Part shown: one piece after another, positions 17,567 through 30,744 of the stretch
How the letters are laid out: the number at the start of each line of letters is the position of its first letter
Position numbering within the stretch: position 1 is the first letter of the stretch
Assembly (NCBI GenBank): GCA_024679065.1
Contig: JAGIQG010000012.1
Location: 44,206,001 to 44,270,000 of the forward strand
Length of the DNA: 64,000 bases
Source: Sphyrna mokarran
Lineage: Eukaryota
Direction of reading: 5' to 3'
Notes under the pieces: generated by a model
Seen by the model: the letters and a program-made list of their open reading frames with translations, nothing else
What the model was told of the DNA's origin: nothing
Databases searched by the model: none
Translations under genes and position numbers: made by a program

Positions 17567-17782
17567 CTACTTCTTTTTGCTAAACAGACTGAATCGTTTC
17601 TCTTTGTCTTTCTCTTTATCTTTTTCTCGTCTACCAGGACTGGATTCACCAGCCAAAACGACACTAGCTGGCAGGGTCTGTGCACGGCTAGCTGCCGGGG
17701 TACTCTGGCTGCTTGGAATTGCCTCGCTCTTATCTGTAGACACAGCTGAAGTAATAGCTTGAATCCAACTGTTCATTTCCTC
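17567..17782 (-). CDS. SPTBN1: SPTBN1 terminal coding exon (EEMNSWIQAI...RFSLFSKKK*)
   Basis: 216 nt ending in TAG. Confidence 0.95.
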   Translation of the reverse strand, partial: EEMNSWIQAITSAVSTDKSEAIPSSQSTPAASRAQTLPASVVLAGESSPGRREKDKEKDKEKRFSLFSKKK

Positions 17783-18086: not shown

Positions 18087-18129
18087 ATCATCTTTGGCTT
18101 GGAAGAGATATTCATTGCCATCGCTCAGC
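18087..18129 (-). CDS. SPTBN1: SPTBN1 PH-domain exon (LSDGNEYLFQAKDD)
   Basis: 43 nt, phase 2-0, donor gtaagt. Confidence 0.94.
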
Positions 18130-19695
18130 CTGTTTTGAACAAAAAGACACGCAGTATCTGTATTTGTTGTCGTTGCAAACTTAAACTAGCAGCAGCAAAG
18201 TTCCAGATTTGACTTACCAATTTTCAGTTGTGGTAGCCCCAAGCTAAGGTAGATAATAGTTTGTATGTATGTTTTGACAAGAGAGAGAGAGAGCAAGGAT
18301 GCTCTGACAATCAGCTAGCATGCTGATGATAAATACTTTCTACACAAAGAATGATATAAACGCACAAAATACTAAAGGACAACTACTATTCATAGAACTC
18401 CATCAATATCTTCTGGAGGTGAGGACTGAATGGAAAATAGATTGCTACACATCTGTGTATACTTGGTAGCACATGCTTGGATATTTGGAAAATACTAACA
18501 TCTATAAGAAATGTTTTCATTTTTGCATTCATTTAAAATTCTTGGTTAAACAGAAATGAGAATCATACATTAAATGCTAACTCCTAATCATTTTTTTTAA
18601 ATGCTGTTTTTCTCCATGTTATCAATTATTGGTAAGCCTGACCACATACCTTCATTACAAAGAATCCTATGAACTAAAAAGATTCAAGATTCAGTCATAA
18701 AGCTGAAATGAATTTACTGATCTCAGCAAGTGTAGAAATTTATACAATTTGCCTTAATGCCTCGGGGTTACAGAAGTATCAGGGTGCATGAATCACTATC
18801 CAGTTATCCCTACTAGTGCATGTGGTTGGATATTGGATAAAATGATTAGCTGCCCTTTTTGGTTTGACTACCTTGTTGATTGCCAGTCATTGTTGCAGCT
18901 GTCTCAGAATGGCGGCTATTGGTGTGGGGTACTAAAGGACATTAAGCATCAATGGAACTATCGCGAGGCAAGGAAAGGCAGTGCCTCTTGTAAAGGAGGA
19001 ATGATTACAATTTAGGAACCTTCAACTGCTTCCTACTGTTGCACAAAGCATTGCCTTAACTTCCTAGGCCACTCCAAAGTCATGAATGAAGATAAAGTGA
19101 AGCGTATTGAGACTACAGGTAAATGTGTTTGACTAATCAGCAGTTAGGTTGCCCTGTGTGAACCATATACATAAAAGGTACAGATGCAGTGAGTTCCTAG
19201 TATATTTAAAAAAAGAAATCCTTAAATTTATGAGAATCTAATATTTTAAACAACCATGTTTGTAGATCTATGTGAACAAACATAGCCATTCCTCAGCATA
19301 ACAATTTCTAAGAGGGGTCTGATTTTGCTGCATTTAATTTGGAATGATTACCCATTGTTTATTGAGAAAACAAAGATCAAAATTGTTAGAAATTTGCAAA
19401 GTTCACTTAGCCACTTCTTAACATCATTTTGGTACTATTTCATCTATGTTTGAATGACTTTTCACTTCAGTACTAAATATGTTAACCTATTATCACCTTC
19501 AGGTATTGACAGACCTGCTGCAAATTTCCTATTTTTATTTCAGATTTTCAGTATTCCTGTTTAAATTTTCCTCTCTGCTACATTTCATCTTTATTTAATA
19601 AAGGCTCATGCATCTTAAAAATACAGTGAGTTTAATCGATTTGGATCTCACATGACGTATCCAGCACAAAAAAACATGGAATAATAAAGCACTTA

Positions 19696-19911
<216 letters not shown>

Positions 19912-20424
19912 TTACCTTGTAATACATCAACTTTTATTGAATCAAATTTGCAATGATGAGACACTGCAAAGTTATTGGGTGGGATCTCTGATCTCGTCCA
20001 CACCTGCTCACTGCCAACAAGAATGGAGAATCTGGCACTCTGCCAAACTTCTATTTGCTCGGCTGCACCAAAAAATCTGAGCCAAGCTCGGCAGTTTTGG
20101 TGTTAATGTTGATTTTAAATGTTTACATTTCTCTCAAAGATCCAGGACTCATTCATACAGTTTCATGAGTACAATGAGCCTTCCATTAGTTTGCTCAAGT
20201 AGTCAATTATTCATGTGAATAGGCTGCTGACATTAACTATCATACAATAGTCAAATCTGATTCTGCCTTTATGCAACATCCCATAAATGCTTTTTTGTAT
20301 AGGTCACAGGATTCCTGGCTGGCTGACTGTCCCCTTTTTAGTTTCAACTGTAGGATCCAAATTTTAAACCTGACACACATCAACTGGCTCAGAACATACT
20401 GAGAATTGATTCAAGTACTTCGAT

Positions 20425-21535
20425 GTTGGATATTTTAATTTTCAAAAGGCATGTAATAAGGTGCCATACAAAATACCTGTGCAAGATTGGAGTTCATGAT
20501 GTTGGAGCTAATATTGTGCCATGGATAGAGAATTGACTAACAGGGAGCAAAGAATAGCAATAATGGGGTCTTTCTCAGGTTGAAGAGCAGTAACCAGTGA
20601 CATGAGGATCAGTGCTAGGACCGCGACTCTTTGTAGCATAAATTAATGATTTGGAGAATGGAACAGAGTGCACTGTGGCCAAATTGCAGAAGATACAAAG
20701 GTGTGAGGAGACAGATTGTAAGAGGGATACAAATGGTTTACAGAGATAGGTGACGGATTAGATGAGTGGCAGAAGATTGGCAAATGGAATCCAATGTGCA
20801 AAAATGTGAGATTTTTCATTTCAGAAAGAAGATGAGAAGGCAGGTTATTATTTAAATGGAGAAAGACTGCAGAAAATTGTAGCACAAAGGGAATTGTGAG
20901 TCCTTGTTCATGAAACCCAGAAAGTGTGCATATAGGTGCAGAAAATAAAAGGAACGCAAATGGAATCCTGGTTTTTATTTCAAGGGGGCTGGAATATATA
21001 AGCAAAGAGGTGTTGCTGCAACTGTACAAGGGCACTAGTGGGGCCTCATTTAGAATATTGTTTTGGTTTCCTTGTCTAAGGAAAGCTATGTTATCATTGG
21101 AGGCAGTACACAGGTTTGCTAGGATGACCCCAGGTATGCAGGGACTGACATACGAGGAAAGACTAAACAGGTTGGGCCTGCATTCCTTGTAGTTGGGCAA
21201 AATGAAAGGTGATATGATCGAAACATAACATTCTTAGGGGGTTAGACAGGGTAAATGTTGAGAGGATGTTTCCACTCATGGGAGTATGTTGGATCAGAAG
21301 TAGAGTCACAGAATAAGGAAGTGCTCCTTTAAGACTGGTTTGAGGAATAATTTCTTCTCTGGTAAATCTTTGGAATTTTTTACCCTAGGAAACTGTGGAG
21401 GCTGAGTCCTTGAACATTTTCAAGCCCGGGATATATTTTTAATCAATACAGGGATTAAGAGTTTTGGAGAGAAGGCAGAAAAATGAACTTAGATCAACTA
21501 AGATCTAATTAGATGGCAAGCAAGCTCAAGGGCTG
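20425..21535 (+). mobile_element. Degenerate CR1 LINE (intronic, antisense to SPTBN1)
   Basis: The ORF-track peptide ISRGLEYISKEVLLQLYK...YEERLNRLGL, plus decayed RT motifs. Confidence 0.85.
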
Positions 21536-21542
21536 AACTTAT

Positions 21543-21798
21543 TTTAAAGTTTATTTATTTGTGTCATAAGTAACACTGTAATGAAGTTACTGTGGAATTC
21601 CCCTAGCTGCCACTCTCTGGCGCCTATTCAGCTATACAGGGAGAATTTAGCATGGCCAACACACCTAACCAGCATGTCTTCTGGACTGTGGGAGGGAACC
21701 CACACAGACACAGGGAGGACATGCAAACTCTGCACAGACAATGAACTGAACCTGGCACTGTGAGGCAGCACTGCTAGCCGCTGTGCTGCCATGCGCCC
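21543..21798 (-). mobile_element. V-SINE, AATAAA-tail type
   Basis: Aligns with 2256-2557 and 9035-9300. Confidence 0.8.
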
Positions 21799-22279
21799 CC
21801 TGTCGTTTCTGTTTCTTATGGTCTGAAGTCATGAGCATAACAATTAGAATTATATTAATAGAAGCCCTTTATATGTATATTAGATGACTATACCATTACT
21901 TAATTTGTCTGTTGTGTAAGCTGTAGAACAGTATGTTTGAGCAACAGTGCTTGACAATATCATAAAGCACCTGCTGACAACTACAGAACAATATTGCCTT
22001 AAGCTGAATTATTACATTCTGCAAGTCCCCGCGCATGCCACATATAAGCCATTCTCTAAATTACAAAATAATTTCAAGGCCTGTGCATTATATAAACAGA
22101 TGAGAGAGTACATTACTACAGAGATATAAACAGAGACAAGGACAGAAGATTGGTGGGTGGAACTGAAAAAGCCTAGCAGCAAATTCCCCATCCTCTTGAC
22201 TACTTGAGGTGCAGGTCAGGGGAAGAAGAATTTCTACATCCTAAACAAAAAAAAAATTACATTAGAAAGCCCAAATTCA

Positions 22280-22564
<285 letters not shown>

Positions 22565-25079
22565 TCAACAGATAATAAACGAATCACTGTTTTAAATGTA
22601 GTCCAAAATATACTGAAACCAAATACACAAGGACACTGTATTTGCCATGCACTGAAAATGTAATTATTGGTTTTGTAAGACCTGATGAGTATTCAATGGA
22701 TTTGAGTCACAGTACAGCACAACATTCATTATTGAAGAATTTCTGTAACTGATGACCACTCCCTAAAGATTATGTGGGCAAATGCAGTGTTGCATTGAAT
22801 CATGTGAATAACTAGCATCCTAACTTAGATTATTATAGTGAGAATAGTACTGAAGAGATAACAGGACTTCTTTAACAAGTAGGGGAAAAATTAACCAGGA
22901 TCTGAACACCAGATCTGTGCTTGAATTGCATCTATATGGATATTGGATGAGAAGAGGAGCAAACACAATGTCATCATAGTGAAAATAGTTTGTGCCAACA
23001 TTTTTTTTTAGTTTATATATGAGGCAACTTTAGTGAGCTGCCAGCTACCAGACATGTGTATTTCAACATGATTTGTTGCCTGAGGAATTTTTCAAAACTC
23101 GTGAGTAGGGGTGTGCACTAAATTCCAGGCATGACTAATTTAAATGAAGAAAAGTGTTCCTTGTGAAAAATTTTATTTCTAAAATTGGGTAAATTTCTGT
23201 GTGAACTACCAAGAAGCTCATGTAACCATTGAGGTGGATATGATTGACATATAGAAGCAGTTTCTAACTGTGAAACAAATTTAAAGCATACTTGCACAAC
23301 AATATTCTTTTTCACCTTATGAGACTAAGCACACAGCAACTTTAACAGTTTACCTTGTCCAGGTCACTGTTATGAATATGGAATGAGTATAAACAAAGTC
23401 TCTAATGATATGTGATTTTCTTTTTCTAAAGTTAAAGCATTTAACAAACCATTTTAAAAAGCATTATTCTTCCTCTTTTTCTATTTTTCTGAAGTGGACT
23501 AAAATTAACACTTTACCACTTCACTTGTTCCTTGTACATCTTAAGGCAATCTAGAGGTGACGTTGCTGAGAGAATGCAGCTCTACACTGGCCTTCAAATA
23601 ATTAACAAACCACTCCAGTAAAATCAGAATAAAAACTGCTGTAACTGTACTTTTAAAGTGGACAGGAAAACTTATGAAAAGATTTGCATTTATTTTCAAA
23701 AATCAGCAAATAAATATATTATTCCCAAATAACCAGAGGCATTCATTTATCAAAAACTAATTCTAGATAAGTCTTCATACAAATACTCATGAGAAGGTGA
23801 GAAAAATTTTGACAGTGGTCTAAGGACAATATAAAATAAAAGATAAATGGTGAAAAATTTTAAAAACCTTGTACTATCCTCCCATTCTAATAACCTCCCC
23901 TTTGATGTAAGTTGAGTTATCCTTTAACTGAGACTTTGCTTATACTTATTCATTCTTTTCATTTAAGATATTGTTTAGGCATGCAGAATTTTCAATCTTT
24001 ATAGATCAATCATGCAGACCAACACCACCACCTAGGTTTAGTTGCTTTGTAGTTTGATCATAAACAGGAAGGAGCACAGTTCTCAATGCAAACAGCATTT
24101 TAAGCAGAGTAATTATCAATTTTTAATAACTATTATAGATTTGAAATTCAAGCCAAGAAAGTCACTCAAAACCAATACAGTTATTTACCCCCAAAACAGA
24201 CAGACCCAAGGTCTTGTCCATCACTTGCTTTGTTGTTCATGTTGCTTGCTGCAGTGTGATCCTGACAACCTAGAGAGCAGCCAAGCTTCCAGCAGCTCTG
24301 CAGTTTCTATCTGGACAGGGTATCTTCAGAAATCCAGTCATCCAAATTATTTTGAATTGTAATTCCACTAGATTTAGCCACAGAAATTCAGATCACTTGA
24401 TTCTTGTGCTATCAATACTTTTCTCTCGCTTTTCTGAATCGTATTTGTAAGGTGGATACAGCAGTTGGTGAGTCACACTGTGACCAGCATGTAATTAGCA
24501 AATTTACTACAACTAAGTACTTACACTTGTTTAATTAAAAATGGATCAAACACTGTGCAAAGAGATTTGCATACTCATGCCAGTACAACAGATTAAGACA
24601 ACATTTTGATTGCTTTATAATTCAGAAATATGTGCTGTATCTGAATTTACAATTCGAGTGGACTACAGCAATACTTCACTAATCTGATTGGTATCTCCAC
24701 AACTTTCTAACTTTTTCATTTAGCTCACAATCAATATAATCTTTTTAGACAATCAAATATGACTTTCCAACTTCAAACATGCAACTCATTTTTACAAAAG
24801 GGAAAACAAAAATTAGCTGCGTTATTCCAGTAGTATTTCATTCAAAAGTCTTCATGTTTTGCATCTATTACCTGTTTTAAACTGTTTTATAGTTTTAACT
24901 GGAAACTAGAAACAGCCACTCTCTAAATGTTCACATGAAAAATATGCCTTAATACCTCATTAAAATACTCTTTACAAAATGCCATACCAAAAGTTGATGC
25001 TAATACAATAAACAATTGCTAAATTCAGTGATTAATAACCCAATCACTTCTTTAAAATCATATTTTCTTACGATCAATC

Positions 25080-25171
25080 TTCCTTTGTCAATCCCTTTAA
25101 CTTGATTTTTCAGTGAATAATAACTCATTAATCACTGAAAAATCAAGTTGAGGGATTGACATACAAAGGAA
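25080..25171. repeat. Long inverted repeat / hairpin
   Basis: tgtcaatccct-tt-aacttgatttttcagtga [15 nt] tcactgaaaaatcaagtt-g-agggattgaca. Confidence 0.9.
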
Positions 25172-27984
25172 ATTGTTGTCACAAAATAATTCATCTGTCA
25201 TGTTAATTTGGGTTAGAAATTTTCTATCAAAGTAATTTCTGTTTACACTGCAATTATTTTAAATTGTCTTCCCTGGCACATATCTGATACATTCTAGCAG
25301 TCTCATTTGGTGACATCTTACACTCAATTCATCTCTCAATGCTTTTCTATAAAATTTGGTATAATAAAAGGCTGTCAACATGCATGAATTTTGCATGGTG
25401 AAAACCTACAGTTCTGGAAAGAACTAGTTGTACAGAACATTTTAGTTCAACGCATAGGAGCCCTCTACTGCAAAAAAGTGGTAGTTAAAATGTCAGACAT
25501 TACAAAGCAGCTGATGAAATGATAGGACTAAGAAATTGAAACTGTGAATTCAATGAGAGAACACAAAAAAAATTTAAGTTCAACAACATCAATTGTTGAT
25601 AAAATCTTGAACTTTGACCTGTTAATCTACACTTTCCAATGTTACAGTTTCTAAAAATTTAGAGCACTGAATGAAAGGAATTTAAGGTTTCAAAACAATG
25701 TTCATTTGAACTATTGTCATCTCTGGTCTTTTAGGCTTAAATTTAATCTGTAATGCTTAAAATGTACAGTTCCGAGCGAGAGAAAAATATCTACAAAATT
25801 AAAATTATGACAATGTTCTTTTGAAAACACAAACACAAAGTTAAGAAAACATGAAATATAAGGTGAAGTTTAATAATTAAGGCTTAGACATGCTAAACAC
25901 ATGCAAAAACAAATATTGTTAAAAACAAAAATGACAAGTTTGTTAATCAAGTGATAGTTACAACAGAACCAAAACAAATATTATAAGTGTTTCATTTGAA
26001 TATTAGTAGTAATGCTTACTGCTCACTTAAGTGATGGCCAACATTGTAACAATTGAATCAAAATAAACAAACATGCAGCAAGAACAATCTGACTAAAGGT
26101 GAAAACAAAATGCATCAACAACCTTCACGTGCACAGAACAATTAAGATATTTCAACAACAGATTACATTTGACAAAATTATCTGAAAAAAACAAAGACAA
26201 AAAGTCTAAATTGAGCTAAATTAAACATTAAAGGGGAATGTATTGCAAATCTTGCAAACATTTCATCCAGCAAGTTACCCAAGATCAAACCAGACTTACT
26301 AACCACTTTGAATGTTCGAGAACTGGCTGATTTTTATATATAAAAATTTGGATTAAGTTAAAACCACTGCTCTTGAAGTTTATTATTTAGGAACTCAGTT
26401 AATTTAAAATGGCATATTTTGTGTCTTATAGACAAAATTCAAGATACTGTTACAGATAAACTTAGGTTTGTTACCAGAATTTTTAGGGCTCAACACAACT
26501 CATTAAATGAAATGATCAATACATGGGGTGTTTGTCATCATATAGTGCTTTGTGAACCATTCACCAAAGCAGAGTTCCTGTATTGGTATGCATAGTCCAT
26601 CGCAATCAATGCAGAAAAAAAATAAAACATTAATACTGCAACAATAATCAGTGCCAAGTACAGACTAGAAGGTGGTATAAGAAATGCAGAGGAGTAAAGA
26701 ATGCTTAGAATTGAATCAGTATATAGGAAAGTGTTAAAAAAAATCATTTGTAATTTAGTTACACTGGAGAATGAAAATAACAATAAATATTTTATCTACA
26801 AAAGCACTGCATGCATCAATGTCATAACTGTACATTTAACAGCAAAAGTTTTCATCTAGTTCTGTCACTAGTATTTGGTTAGGAAAAAATGTATTAATAG
26901 CTCTGGGTTCTGTTTAGTGATGTCCATGGGCTCTCTGTGAATTTTGTTATTTATAAGTTAAGGTCTTGACAACCACAGCTTGAATTATTAGCTTCTAAAT
27001 ATGCTAGAAATTTGTTAATAAATCCTTCTCTCCTTATCTGCTGACAAGATTTCAAAGTTTTCAGTATCTTGGTTTTGGAATAAACTGCTTGAGACATATA
27101 TTCCTGCAGTAAGGAAAGAAATTGGTGCATTTAGAACAAAGGATACCACTTTTCACTGCCATTAAATTCCCTGATATAGAATAGATATCCTATGTTGAAT
27201 ATGTTTTTTTTTAAATGAAAACTCATTAACATTTTAAATTTTCAAATAAAAGCCAAGTTAAAAATTACAATTAATGTTCAAGAGCCCTTTGACTCTTTGG
27301 AATACCTTAAAAAAAAATTTCAGAAATAATTTATGAAAAAGTAGCATATGCTGAGCCGTTTTCCTGATAGCAGTAAGTCAGAAATCATATGTATTCTTTT
27401 GATATTTACTACCTCAAGTCTTCTGGGGATGATAAAATAATCTGCTAGAATTTGGAGTAATATTAATTTATTTGAAGTAATGTTAATCCTGACTCTGAAC
27501 AGTTGCACACCAGTTCAGTAAATGAGAACTGTCACCATCACATCAAAGACAGCTACTGAACTATTAGTAAGGATCATTTCTCAACTTGACGATAATAAAA
27601 ATTCAATATTCATTTCAGAAACTCCAGTTCAGAAATTGAAGTTTACAAATACCAATGTGTTGTTTTTTTCTTATTGTGAATAGATATAGAAATGTGCTTG
27701 GAGTAATTTATCCACCTAACATCTCCTTGTATGTAATATTCAATCTCTCTAATCCAACATTTAATGCTATAACGAATGAAGCAATTTTCAAAAGAAGAAA
27801 TTAATGCTAAGTGAAATTCATAAACATATTTCATGAAAATTATATCTAAATTGACACCTAGTACAATTCATTGGTGTTCATGTCAGGTTTGCTTTTTTTT
27901 CCTTTATGGATTTTATTTGGAATGGGCATTAAGGAAGCTTCATGACCACAGGAACTCTCAAAGGCTAACACTTATTATAAGATT

Positions 27985-28545
27985 TGAGTACAGGAGTAAA
28001 AAAATCTCCTAGAATTGTACAGAGCCTTGCTGACGCTGGCCTTGGCAATAAAGCCTTAGCAATACTGGAATATTTTGTAAGTTTTGGATTTACTTATGCA
28101 AGTAAGGATGCATTTACTATAGAGGGAGTGCTATGAAGATTCACCAGACCGATTTCTGAGATGGTTGGACTGTCCTTGAGGACAATCATTGAGATTGACA
28201 TTGAGGAGACTGGGCCTATATTCTCTAGAATTTAGAAGCTTGAGAGGTGATCTCATTGAAGCAAACAAAGTTCTTACAGGGCTCAACAGGGTAGATTCAG
28301 GAAGGATTTTTTTCCTCCTGGCTGGTGTTGTTTAGAGCCAGGCAACAGTGTGTGTCAGTATAAGAGGTAGTTCTTTTAGAGTCTATACGTGTATATTCAA
28401 AACAGAAATAGGACAGATTTCTGTACATTAAATATATCAAGAATATGGGGATAGCATGAGAAAATAGCTTTGAAGTAGAAGATCAGTGTTATAGTCAAAT
28501 GCTGAAGCAACCTCGAGAGGCCAAATGGCCAATTCCTATCTTTAT
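27985..28545 (+). mobile_element. Degenerate CR1 3' fragment
   Basis: tttgagtacaggagtaaa, tctctagaatttagaag..gaggtgatctcattgaa and ggccaaatggcc remnants. Confidence 0.8.
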
Positions 28546-30593
28546 GGATACAATAGATTAACAACTATGAACCACATTTGGGAGTTGCATTTACTTTTTG
28601 TAAAATCTTGGCTCTCTCAGTAACTCAGTAATGTAAACTTGCTATTCAAATATCTTGAATAGATTTTTTTTCATGGTTCAGATGGTAGAAGAAAAAACAG
28701 ATCAGGAAACCCAGACCATTCTGTGAAAAGTGACACAGCCAATTGCCACCAGGGATAACTACCTCAACCTTTCCATGGATAAGGTTTTATCACCTGTACC
28801 AAAATGTTTAACATAATAATGGCATTACCAGCAGTTGTAAAAATCATTACAGTTCTCAATTGATATATCCATGGCTTATTCTGGGACAGTATAAGGTAGT
28901 GTCTGGATTAAAAATATAATCGATCCTTTGGTCAGTAAGACTAGGTTTTTTGTTTTAATTTTCTTTCCCACTGAATACAATAATATGCATACACAATACT
29001 TTTGATAAAGTGCAAGAAGTTATTGATAGTAACCACATGTCTAACCTGAAGACCATATAAAATGGCAGTGTGGCTACACTTTCAGTTGTATATGCCATCT
29101 TGGCTATCTGTTCTGTTGCAACATGTAAAAGATGCTAATGATAGAACTATAACATTTTGTGAGATTTTGATAGGCCAGCAGTAAACGTGGAATGGACACA
29201 AACTGTGGTAGAGTGTAATTTAACCTGGCTCATGGTAATGTTGATTACAAATATTACATGGTAAGACTAAAATGTGCTGTACTTTCATGCATTGGTTTCC
29301 AGATTGTTCAGGCACTGTGGATTGTGTTTACTTTAGTTACCACCTCCTGACTAGTATGGCACACTGCCATCCTCTGATGAGGATGAGCTGCAGTGCAAAA
29401 CAGAACACTTCTTGCAGCAGAACATCCATTTTGCAGCCAATCAATTCTGGATGTCAGGGTTGTGCCACTCTTCTATTTTGTCAGATGCTGTTTTATACCA
29501 CTATAATTATGTGGCTTGACCATTTAACCTCACCAATCATTTCCCCCTCACTCCACAATAATGGCATGTGCAAAGACTGAAAACTGCAATGATAATTTCA
29601 AAACCTTAACTAAGTGTCAACATTTTAATTAAATTGTGTTTGCTTTGCTTTATTTTTACTGGACGATTATTTAAGGGCTATTTGCTCTGAACTAATTTCA
29701 CACACCACATACCCCAATCCCACTGCTGCTCTCACAAATTACTTCATTTGGTGCCATGTGCAAAGGCATCAGTTTTGCAAGGAACACCTGTAAAGTTATA
29801 AAACTAGCTGACATTGTTAAATCTGACAAAGTTAGCTACCCAATCTGTGTTAGTGCAAGTGTGCTCATATTTCCTCAGAAACTCAGAATTGACCTTTACA
29901 AGCCTTAATTAGGAGCTATGTTTTTGCTGTGATAGGTGAAGAATGTCCCAGGTTCCCAAACAATTTCAAGTTCGTGACTTAGTACCTTTCTATAACTCAA
30001 TTAATACCAGAAACTCAATTACATAACATAAAACATGGAACAAAAACTTATTCCTTCCGTAGAGCAGGTGCAGTTTGCCTGTTTTGGACTACATCCTAGT
30101 TATTTAATCTTCTCAATGAAAGTTATGGCAAAATCCTTCCTTAATTGTCCATTGTAACAAAGCATCAGAATATTTGTCCTTTCCCACATCTCTACTCCCA
30201 CATCTCAAGTGTGAGTGACCCAATAAACAAAATTTTCACCAGTTCCAGTAGTACAAGAGCCACTGTGTCTCATGAATTATTTCTACTTATCTATATAATT
30301 GTAATATAACATCTACTTGCATCAGGGATGAATTATTTGGCTAATCTATCACACAGCATGTCTCCTTAAAGCTTTACCTTTGTATTTTGGTTTTTGTTGC
30401 TCTTATCATTATGTTAGAGAACTAACAGCTGTACGATTGCTTGAAATCAATGGACACTTTTCAACTGAATTATTAATTAAATAAACTGTGATGTGGATAA
30501 ATAAAAGCATGTGGAAAAGTCAGCAGTTAAATGGGAATGAATTCATAGGTTAGTCTAAGAAGTACATATGTTTCATTTTGATTGATTTGGATT

Positions 30594-30680
30594 TCACAAT
30601 CCAGCTCGGGCCCATTCATTGCCAGCTCGTCTGTTCTGAAAGTTTTTGTAGATTTGGTAGTTTTGAGAGCGGTAACTAAC
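30594..30680 (-). CDS. SPTBN1: Alternative short C-terminus (betaII-Sigma2-like), VSYRSQNYQIYKNFQNRRAGNEWARAGL*
   Basis: In-frame read-through of the donor gives 28 aa plus TGA. Length and sequence match the mammalian short tail as recalled (VSYRSQTYQNYKNFNSRRTASDQPWSGL). Confidence 0.9.
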   Translation of the reverse strand, partial: VSYRSQNYQIYKNFQNRRAGNEWARAGL

Positions 30681-30744
30681 CCGTGGGGACTCCTGGTCTG
30701 ATGGTAATCCATTCTGAGAAATGTGTTCTTCTCTAGCTCCGTCC
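30681..30744 (-). CDS. SPTBN1: SPTBN1 exon (DGAREEHISQNGLPSDQESPR), shared by long and short isoforms
   Basis: 64 nt, phase 2-0, donor CGG|gttagt. Confidence 0.92.

Follow-up and report, generated by a model that had tools for sequence, protein, structure and literature searches.

A 364-base intronic element (24189-24552) in the SPTBN1 (beta-II spectrin) gene of Sphyrna mokarran, strongly conserved in a relative, likely contributes RNA that is spliced from a donor after position 24189 to the exon beginning at 22558, as judged from where contigs start and end and how many loose letters they carry there rather than from those letters themselves. The best account is a minor alternative first exon arising from an intronic promoter or enhancer, for which we regard the chances as about even. 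Under this account the element would likely act as an internal promoter or enhancer, and its RNA would be joined from donor 24189 straight onto 22558, skipping two small exons (B and C) that an initial annotation had placed in between. The spliced RNA would encode a 234-residue PH-domain protein from an ATG at 24221, with upstream ATGs, including an overlapping one at 24240, damping its translation. We infer that transcription starts at the element rather than upstream of it, and likewise any translation; the candidate first-exon RNA is minor and the encoded protein is a prediction.

The window, which is the whole 64,000-nucleotide stretch analysed, carries the 3' part of SPTBN1 on its minus strand, with 25 introns located and an assembled reading frame of 1912 codons up to the normal stop. 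The gene is recognizable by its order of spectrin-repeat exons followed by a PH domain, and by a protein resembling vertebrate SPTBN1 orthologues. The candidate element, together with the A-B-C series of exons of the initial annotation, lies inside the 8.1-kb intron that separates the exon whose 3' end is at 30681 from the one starting at 22558. The relevant parts of the gene are the following.

30681 to 30744, minus strand: normal upstream exon, joined to 22558 in the long form or extended into the intron to give the short Sigma2-type tail
22320 to 22558, minus strand: SPTBN1 exon receiving the candidate splice, encoding the linker and the first PH-domain residues
19697 to 19870, minus strand: SPTBN1 PH-domain exon (Pfam PH_9, 33 bits against a cut-off of 28)
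18087 to 18129, minus strand: SPTBN1 PH-domain exon of 43 nt (gene model)
17567 to 17782, minus strand: last SPTBN1 exon, coding part to the normal stop (gene model)

For this same intron, a long isoform with the PH domain and a short isoform without it are described (PMC7757025), and the short isoform is attributed to read-through and a poly(A) site within intron 32 of the human gene (PMC12041481). The first residue of the exon at 22558 is Ala here and Met in the mammal, python and frog entries; owing to that Met, a non-coding first exon would be enough to yield a PH-only protein in those animals. The intron (22559-30680) also holds nine TGCATG motifs, with 3.6 expected from the rate of the window; these, which we take to be Rbfox-type matches, may bear on the choice between the long and short isoforms.

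RNA evidence was drawn from four of 16 matching sequencing runs (X1, X2, X3 and X11), whose contigs were aligned to 19600-30500. None of the runs is recorded as RNA, and X1, X2 and X3 were taken as such from the spliced joint 19870/22320 alone, which they carry at depths of 629, 373 and 89, respectively. The joint is absent from X11, a run of DNA size that behaves as DNA. X1 is near-identical to the window (0-1 letter differences per listed piece), and X2, X3 and X11 come from relatives, with differences of about 4-7% across most of their intron pieces. The aligned region leaves out the upstream exon at 30681, so joins from that exon appear as loose letters. Contig starts and ends served as the evidence, the tables of joints and of loose ends being crowded by SINE-like repeats at 21.5-21.8 kb; contigs omit rare forms and show neither transcription start nor strand. 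High-copy repeats, presumably LINE- and SINE-like, occupy 20600-21790 and about 28000-28300 and attract thousands of contigs in all four runs. In X3, the depth bins are fully accounted for by the listed pieces (4.62 predicted, 4.62 seen). X2 has no contig cover from about 25850 to 30500, which might suit an internal start and was not counted as evidence.

The element, and the three exons that had been proposed to lie in series from it, are placed as follows.

24189 to 24552, minus strand: conserved intronic element and candidate alternative first exon, its 3' end being the donor after 24189 (X3 conservation, donor score)
24189 to 24240, minus strand: exon A of the initial annotation, 52 nt from ATG 24240; if spliced directly to 22558, a 19-codon out-of-frame ORF overlapping ATG 24221
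23517 to 23565 or 23517 to 23550, minus strand: exon B, 49 or 34 nt, with weak acceptors, likely due to chance
23354 to 23366, minus strand: micro-exon C, 13 nt, with a strong donor and no sign of use

Two features of the contigs point to the donor at 24189. X3 record 28 spans 24188-24551 and bears 27 loose letters at its 24188 end, one base beyond the donor of exon A, and the contig of the exon at 22558 begins at 22559 from its letter 2 (X3 record 24, X1 record 1). X1 shows the second of these signatures only, and X2 neither, its corresponding contig (record 20) aligning from letter 29. When contigs with k=31 were simulated for ten and then six isoform sets, the main form alone gave letter 29, as in X2, and only sets in which 24189 is joined to 22558 gave both an end at 24188 bearing 27 loose letters and a start at letter 2, a combination that follows from the final two bases of A being identical to those of the normal upstream exon. 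Every model containing B or C, as well as the unspliced intron, yielded letter 1, the A piece then ending at 24189; joining 24189 to any of three later exons yielded 29 loose letters, and none of the other acceptor AGs tested from 24100 to 22600 reproduced the signature. In X1, three further candidate donors that end in the same way (29840, 29713 and 26279) lie inside unbroken contigs, which leaves 24189 as the donor by exclusion. In X2, a 1756-nt contig passes unspliced through A, B and C, including donor 24189; in record 21 of this run, exon B is crossed unspliced. The depth of the A piece in X3 is 7.4, or 8% of the 88.6 of the main exon, and does not exceed that of upstream intron pieces (6-10). 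The donor is thus likely used straight to 22558 in the X3 relative, the single run with the full signature, and probably also in the window species or a very close one, as the partial signature of X1 indicates.

Among the claims of the initial annotation, its choice of donor for exon A is borne out by this geometry, and its idea of an intronic exon feeding a repeat-less PH transcript gains support, with a direct route from A to 22558 in place of the one through B and C; the junctions that it drew through those two exons correspond to no simulated model that fits the contigs of X1, X2 or X3. It had further suggested that exon C, spliced alone after the upstream exon, would be a poison exon. The immediate stop after the upstream exon is there, but the letter-1 start that inclusion of exon C predicts occurs in none of the three RNA runs, so that in these runs exon C shows no sign of inclusion as a neural-type micro-exon.

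Several other sites in the intron have notable sequence. At 27103-26951 on the minus strand, a strong acceptor (rank 3 of 476) is followed in phase 0 by an open stretch of 50 codons; the start of X1 record 4 coincides with this acceptor and bears 19 loose letters, X1 being without cover over 27105-27277. The DNA run X11 also breaks there (27103/27077) and X3 runs through unspliced. This stretch is possibly a third C-terminal exon, and the break is possibly a DNA variant. The best-scoring unused acceptor of the intron (26181, score 12.0) is crossed by unbroken X1 and X3 contigs, and two further in-frame ATG-to-donor candidates of 10 and 13 codons at 29370-29332 lie where X1 and X3 contigs are unspliced.

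The element also stands out by its conservation. X3 has four substitutions in the 364 bases of 24188-24551 (1.1%), plus two gap letters, against 356 in 6053 (5.9%) in four other intron pieces of the same run (Fisher p 1e-5); two coding exons, with 12 substitutions in 415, are not significantly different from it (p 0.13). The X2 and X11 pieces that span the element carry fewer changes than predicted from their other pieces (84 vs 111 and 157 vs 179, respectively), a deficit that fits constraint without locating it. The element has one match in its own genome. Its upstream half and flank contain a group of pattern matches.

24469 to 24619, minus strand: promoter/enhancer-like motifs (TATA-like at 24619, octamer at 24572, AP-1-like at 24475, TAATTA at 24537 and 24497; pattern matches)

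These matches resemble promoter or enhancer motifs, and for none of them does the intron clearly exceed the rate of the window. Further upstream, 25061-25188 is a 128-base imperfect self-complementary stretch (80% in self-BLAST). With a conservation that equals or surpasses that of the coding exons on either side, and located in the intron at which the long and short forms part, the element would be a candidate regulator even if non-coding.

The coding potential of the directly spliced RNA resides in a short stretch before the donor.

24189 to 24221, minus strand: ATG 24221 and 11 codons, MDKTLGLSVLG, ending in phase 0 and in frame with the exon at 22558 (predicted translation)

The context of this ATG is strong (G at -3, G at +4), and the frame that it opens on the direct splice comprises 234 codons up to the normal stop, predicted to yield a linker, the PH domain and the tail with no spectrin repeats; the next in-frame ATG, inside the exon at 22558, would give 214 residues. 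The initial annotation had instead derived a protein of about 260 aa from ATG 24240, which on the direct splice reads only 19 codons. Upstream of the start there are four ATGs from 24490 down, including 24490, 24341 and the overlapping 24240, and more above 24552. As they would damp translation, the RNA may be for the most part a by-product of enhancer type that yields little protein. That the element is an internal SPTBN1 promoter kept in sharks, from which a 234-residue mini-spectrin consisting only of the PH domain and the tail is translated, is put forward as an unlikely candidate reading.

Comparison with known proteins covered 23 matches (140-2000 aa), 41, 22 and the best 120 of 870, the named ones among these last being all birds. 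Neither the 11-residue start peptide nor the A, B and C peptides occur among the proteins listed, which include no cartilaginous-fish SPTBN1. The two normal exons are joined without an insert in 106 of the 119 listed new proteins and in two close variants, 11 being without the pattern; as there is no shark orthologue among the listed proteins, this insert-free joining is weak evidence. One entry, P0068 (313 aa), was considered as a longer isoform and set aside, its extension following a W at the normal stop, which we read as a coding-table artefact.

How RNA enters the element depends on its 5' boundary, at which a possible acceptor is found.

24553 to 24554, minus strand: possible acceptor AG, giving an exon start at 24552 and, in phase 0, a stop after five codons (acceptor score 2.3, rank 85 of 476)

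Use of this AG would make the element an internal or terminal exon entered from the upstream exon, adding five codons and a stop; it would be a poison exon if also spliced to 22558, and a third short C-terminus if not. Poison exons typically show very high non-coding conservation, a pattern that the element fits, and a premature stop follows from acceptors at both 24552 and 24269. The simulated model of such an exon yields the same donor signature as the direct splice from an internal start. The X2 and X3 contigs both break at 24551-24555, where the DNA run X11 continues, which is a weak hint of a transcript boundary, and the start of X2 record 21, with 17 loose letters, falls precisely on 24553, a position that fits use of the acceptor. 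In the simulation, however, acceptor use from the upstream exon (a cassette) gives a start at 24553 with 29 loose letters, against the 17 of X2 and none at the 24551 end of X3 record 28, and the acceptor itself is mediocre. The X3 end without loose letters favours a free 5' end, and the X2 start favours acceptor use or else a local sequence difference in the species of X2. Overall, an exon entered from upstream is possible though doubtful. The alternative acceptor at 24269, which would define an 81-nt exon, was rejected; a stop lies in frame inside that exon and the X3 piece is unbroken across the site.

A different view holds the element to be a DNA enhancer whose donor is used incidentally by read-through RNA, either a Sigma2-type 3' extension or pre-mRNA, with no new start and no new protein. 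The X3 intron contigs from 29940 to 24554, at a depth of 6-10, resemble the A piece in this respect, donor 24189 is an ordinary good site, and intron read-through is a known route to the short isoform (PMC12041481). Against this, the X3 contigs are discontinuous over 24551-24554, the spliced path alone is kept at the donor in X3, which suggests efficient use, and the X1 contigs point to this junction in another species as well. Incidental splicing of read-through RNA accordingly seems rather improbable.

A further account is the serial splicing of A, B and C, which would produce a protein of 256-261 aa from ATG 24240. The coordinates, lengths, phases and GT and AG ends given for the three exons are all correct, the frame is open into the exon at 22558 with both variants of B, and ATG 24240 is preceded, at a distance of 69 nt, by a TAG in the same frame. 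Splice sites were scored with matrices built on the 25 real introns of the window and ranked among 463 GTs and 476 AGs. On this scale, the donors of A, B and C reach 7.0 (rank 10), 6.1 (rank 15) and 10.0 (rank 2), respectively, but the two acceptors of B, at 23565 (B1) and 23550 (B2), obtain only -4.4 (rank 293) and 0.8 (rank 130), and that of C 3.4 (rank 58), the leave-one-out median of the real acceptors of the window being 6.5. Chains of this kind are also common. The real intron contains 253 open three-exon chains at the B1 thresholds, 19 of them within 900 nt, and 11 at the B2 thresholds, of which one, A-B-C itself, is compact; at least one chain at the B2 thresholds was found in 49 of 60 dinucleotide shuffles, and a compact one in two of 60, the thresholds and the compact span being derived from the A-B-C chain itself. 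Whether the chain beats chance is not decided by sequence alone. Since no B or C model matches the contigs, the chain as a whole is unsupported, and exons B and C likely reflect chance, without being disproved, given that contigs drop rare forms, so that use in other tissues is possible; production of the long protein from the full series appears very improbable. One-exon candidates running in frame from an ATG to a donor are likewise common by chance (43 of 60 shuffles), and it is the RNA geometry and the conservation that set the 24189 candidate apart. Finally, the possibility that the contig ends reflect coincidence or DNA differences in the relatives, with no splice from 24189, draws on the unseen loose letters at the 24188 end and on breaks that occur in DNA too (X11 at 27103/27077), and it is highly unlikely in view of two independent X3 numbers and one X1 number that match one prediction exactly.

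The reading of the element as a minor alternative first exon can be set beside several known systems, intronic first exons being common. Beta-IV spectrin, encoded by another gene, has an N-terminally shortened Sigma6 form, and its truncated isoforms keep their spectrin repeats. Closer to the predicted product are PH-only SPTBN1 database entries of 220-224 aa (EAX00146.1 and XP_031790063.1, grouped as P0061, and KAF6321777.1, P0063), which begin at the equivalent of the exon at 22558 and contain the PH domain. These entries are mammalian and start at the exon's own Met, whereas the present species has no Met at the exon start, and they may be fragments or automatic models. If the mini-spectrin reading were true, the 224-residue mammalian entries would be its counterpart. 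No PH-only beta-II spectrin isoform is described in the titles and abstract openings retrieved from the literature, from which subscription papers are largely missing. A 2002 paper on the mouse elf gene reportedly may describe a C-terminal isoform.

Such a mini-spectrin, if real, would compete with full-length beta-II spectrin for membrane phosphoinositide sites and so tune how the spectrin skeleton is assembled. Were SPTBN1 to have a natural PH-only product, the long isoform would face a competitor from its own gene, and the product would mirror the known short isoform, which lacks the PH domain. In the fly midgut, removal of the PH domain of beta spectrin blocked polarized assembly and was usually lethal (PMC2064573), which indicates that this domain is responsible for the placement of beta spectrin on some membranes. 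Beta-IV spectrin provides a precedent for short isoforms of a beta spectrin gene, to go by the title of Tse 2001, cited in PMC3249148.

The Sigma1 and Sigma2 isoforms of SPTBN1 involve the same gene and the same intron as the candidate element (PMC7757025, PMC12041481). Both keep the actin-binding domain and repeats, and the inferred form would be their complement, with the PH domain and tail only. Intragenic enhancers can act as alternative promoters that give rise to spliced RNAs, termed meRNAs, whose transcription begins within the host gene and which rely on the splice and poly(A) signals of that gene, much as proposed for the candidate element (PMC4054604). That source describes meRNAs as non-coding in mouse, whereas the SPTBN1 element has an in-frame ATG. 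On the sequence and contigs by which it is known here, the element would most closely resemble, in its mode of action, an enhancer or promoter inside a gene that lends its splice signals to the resulting RNA.
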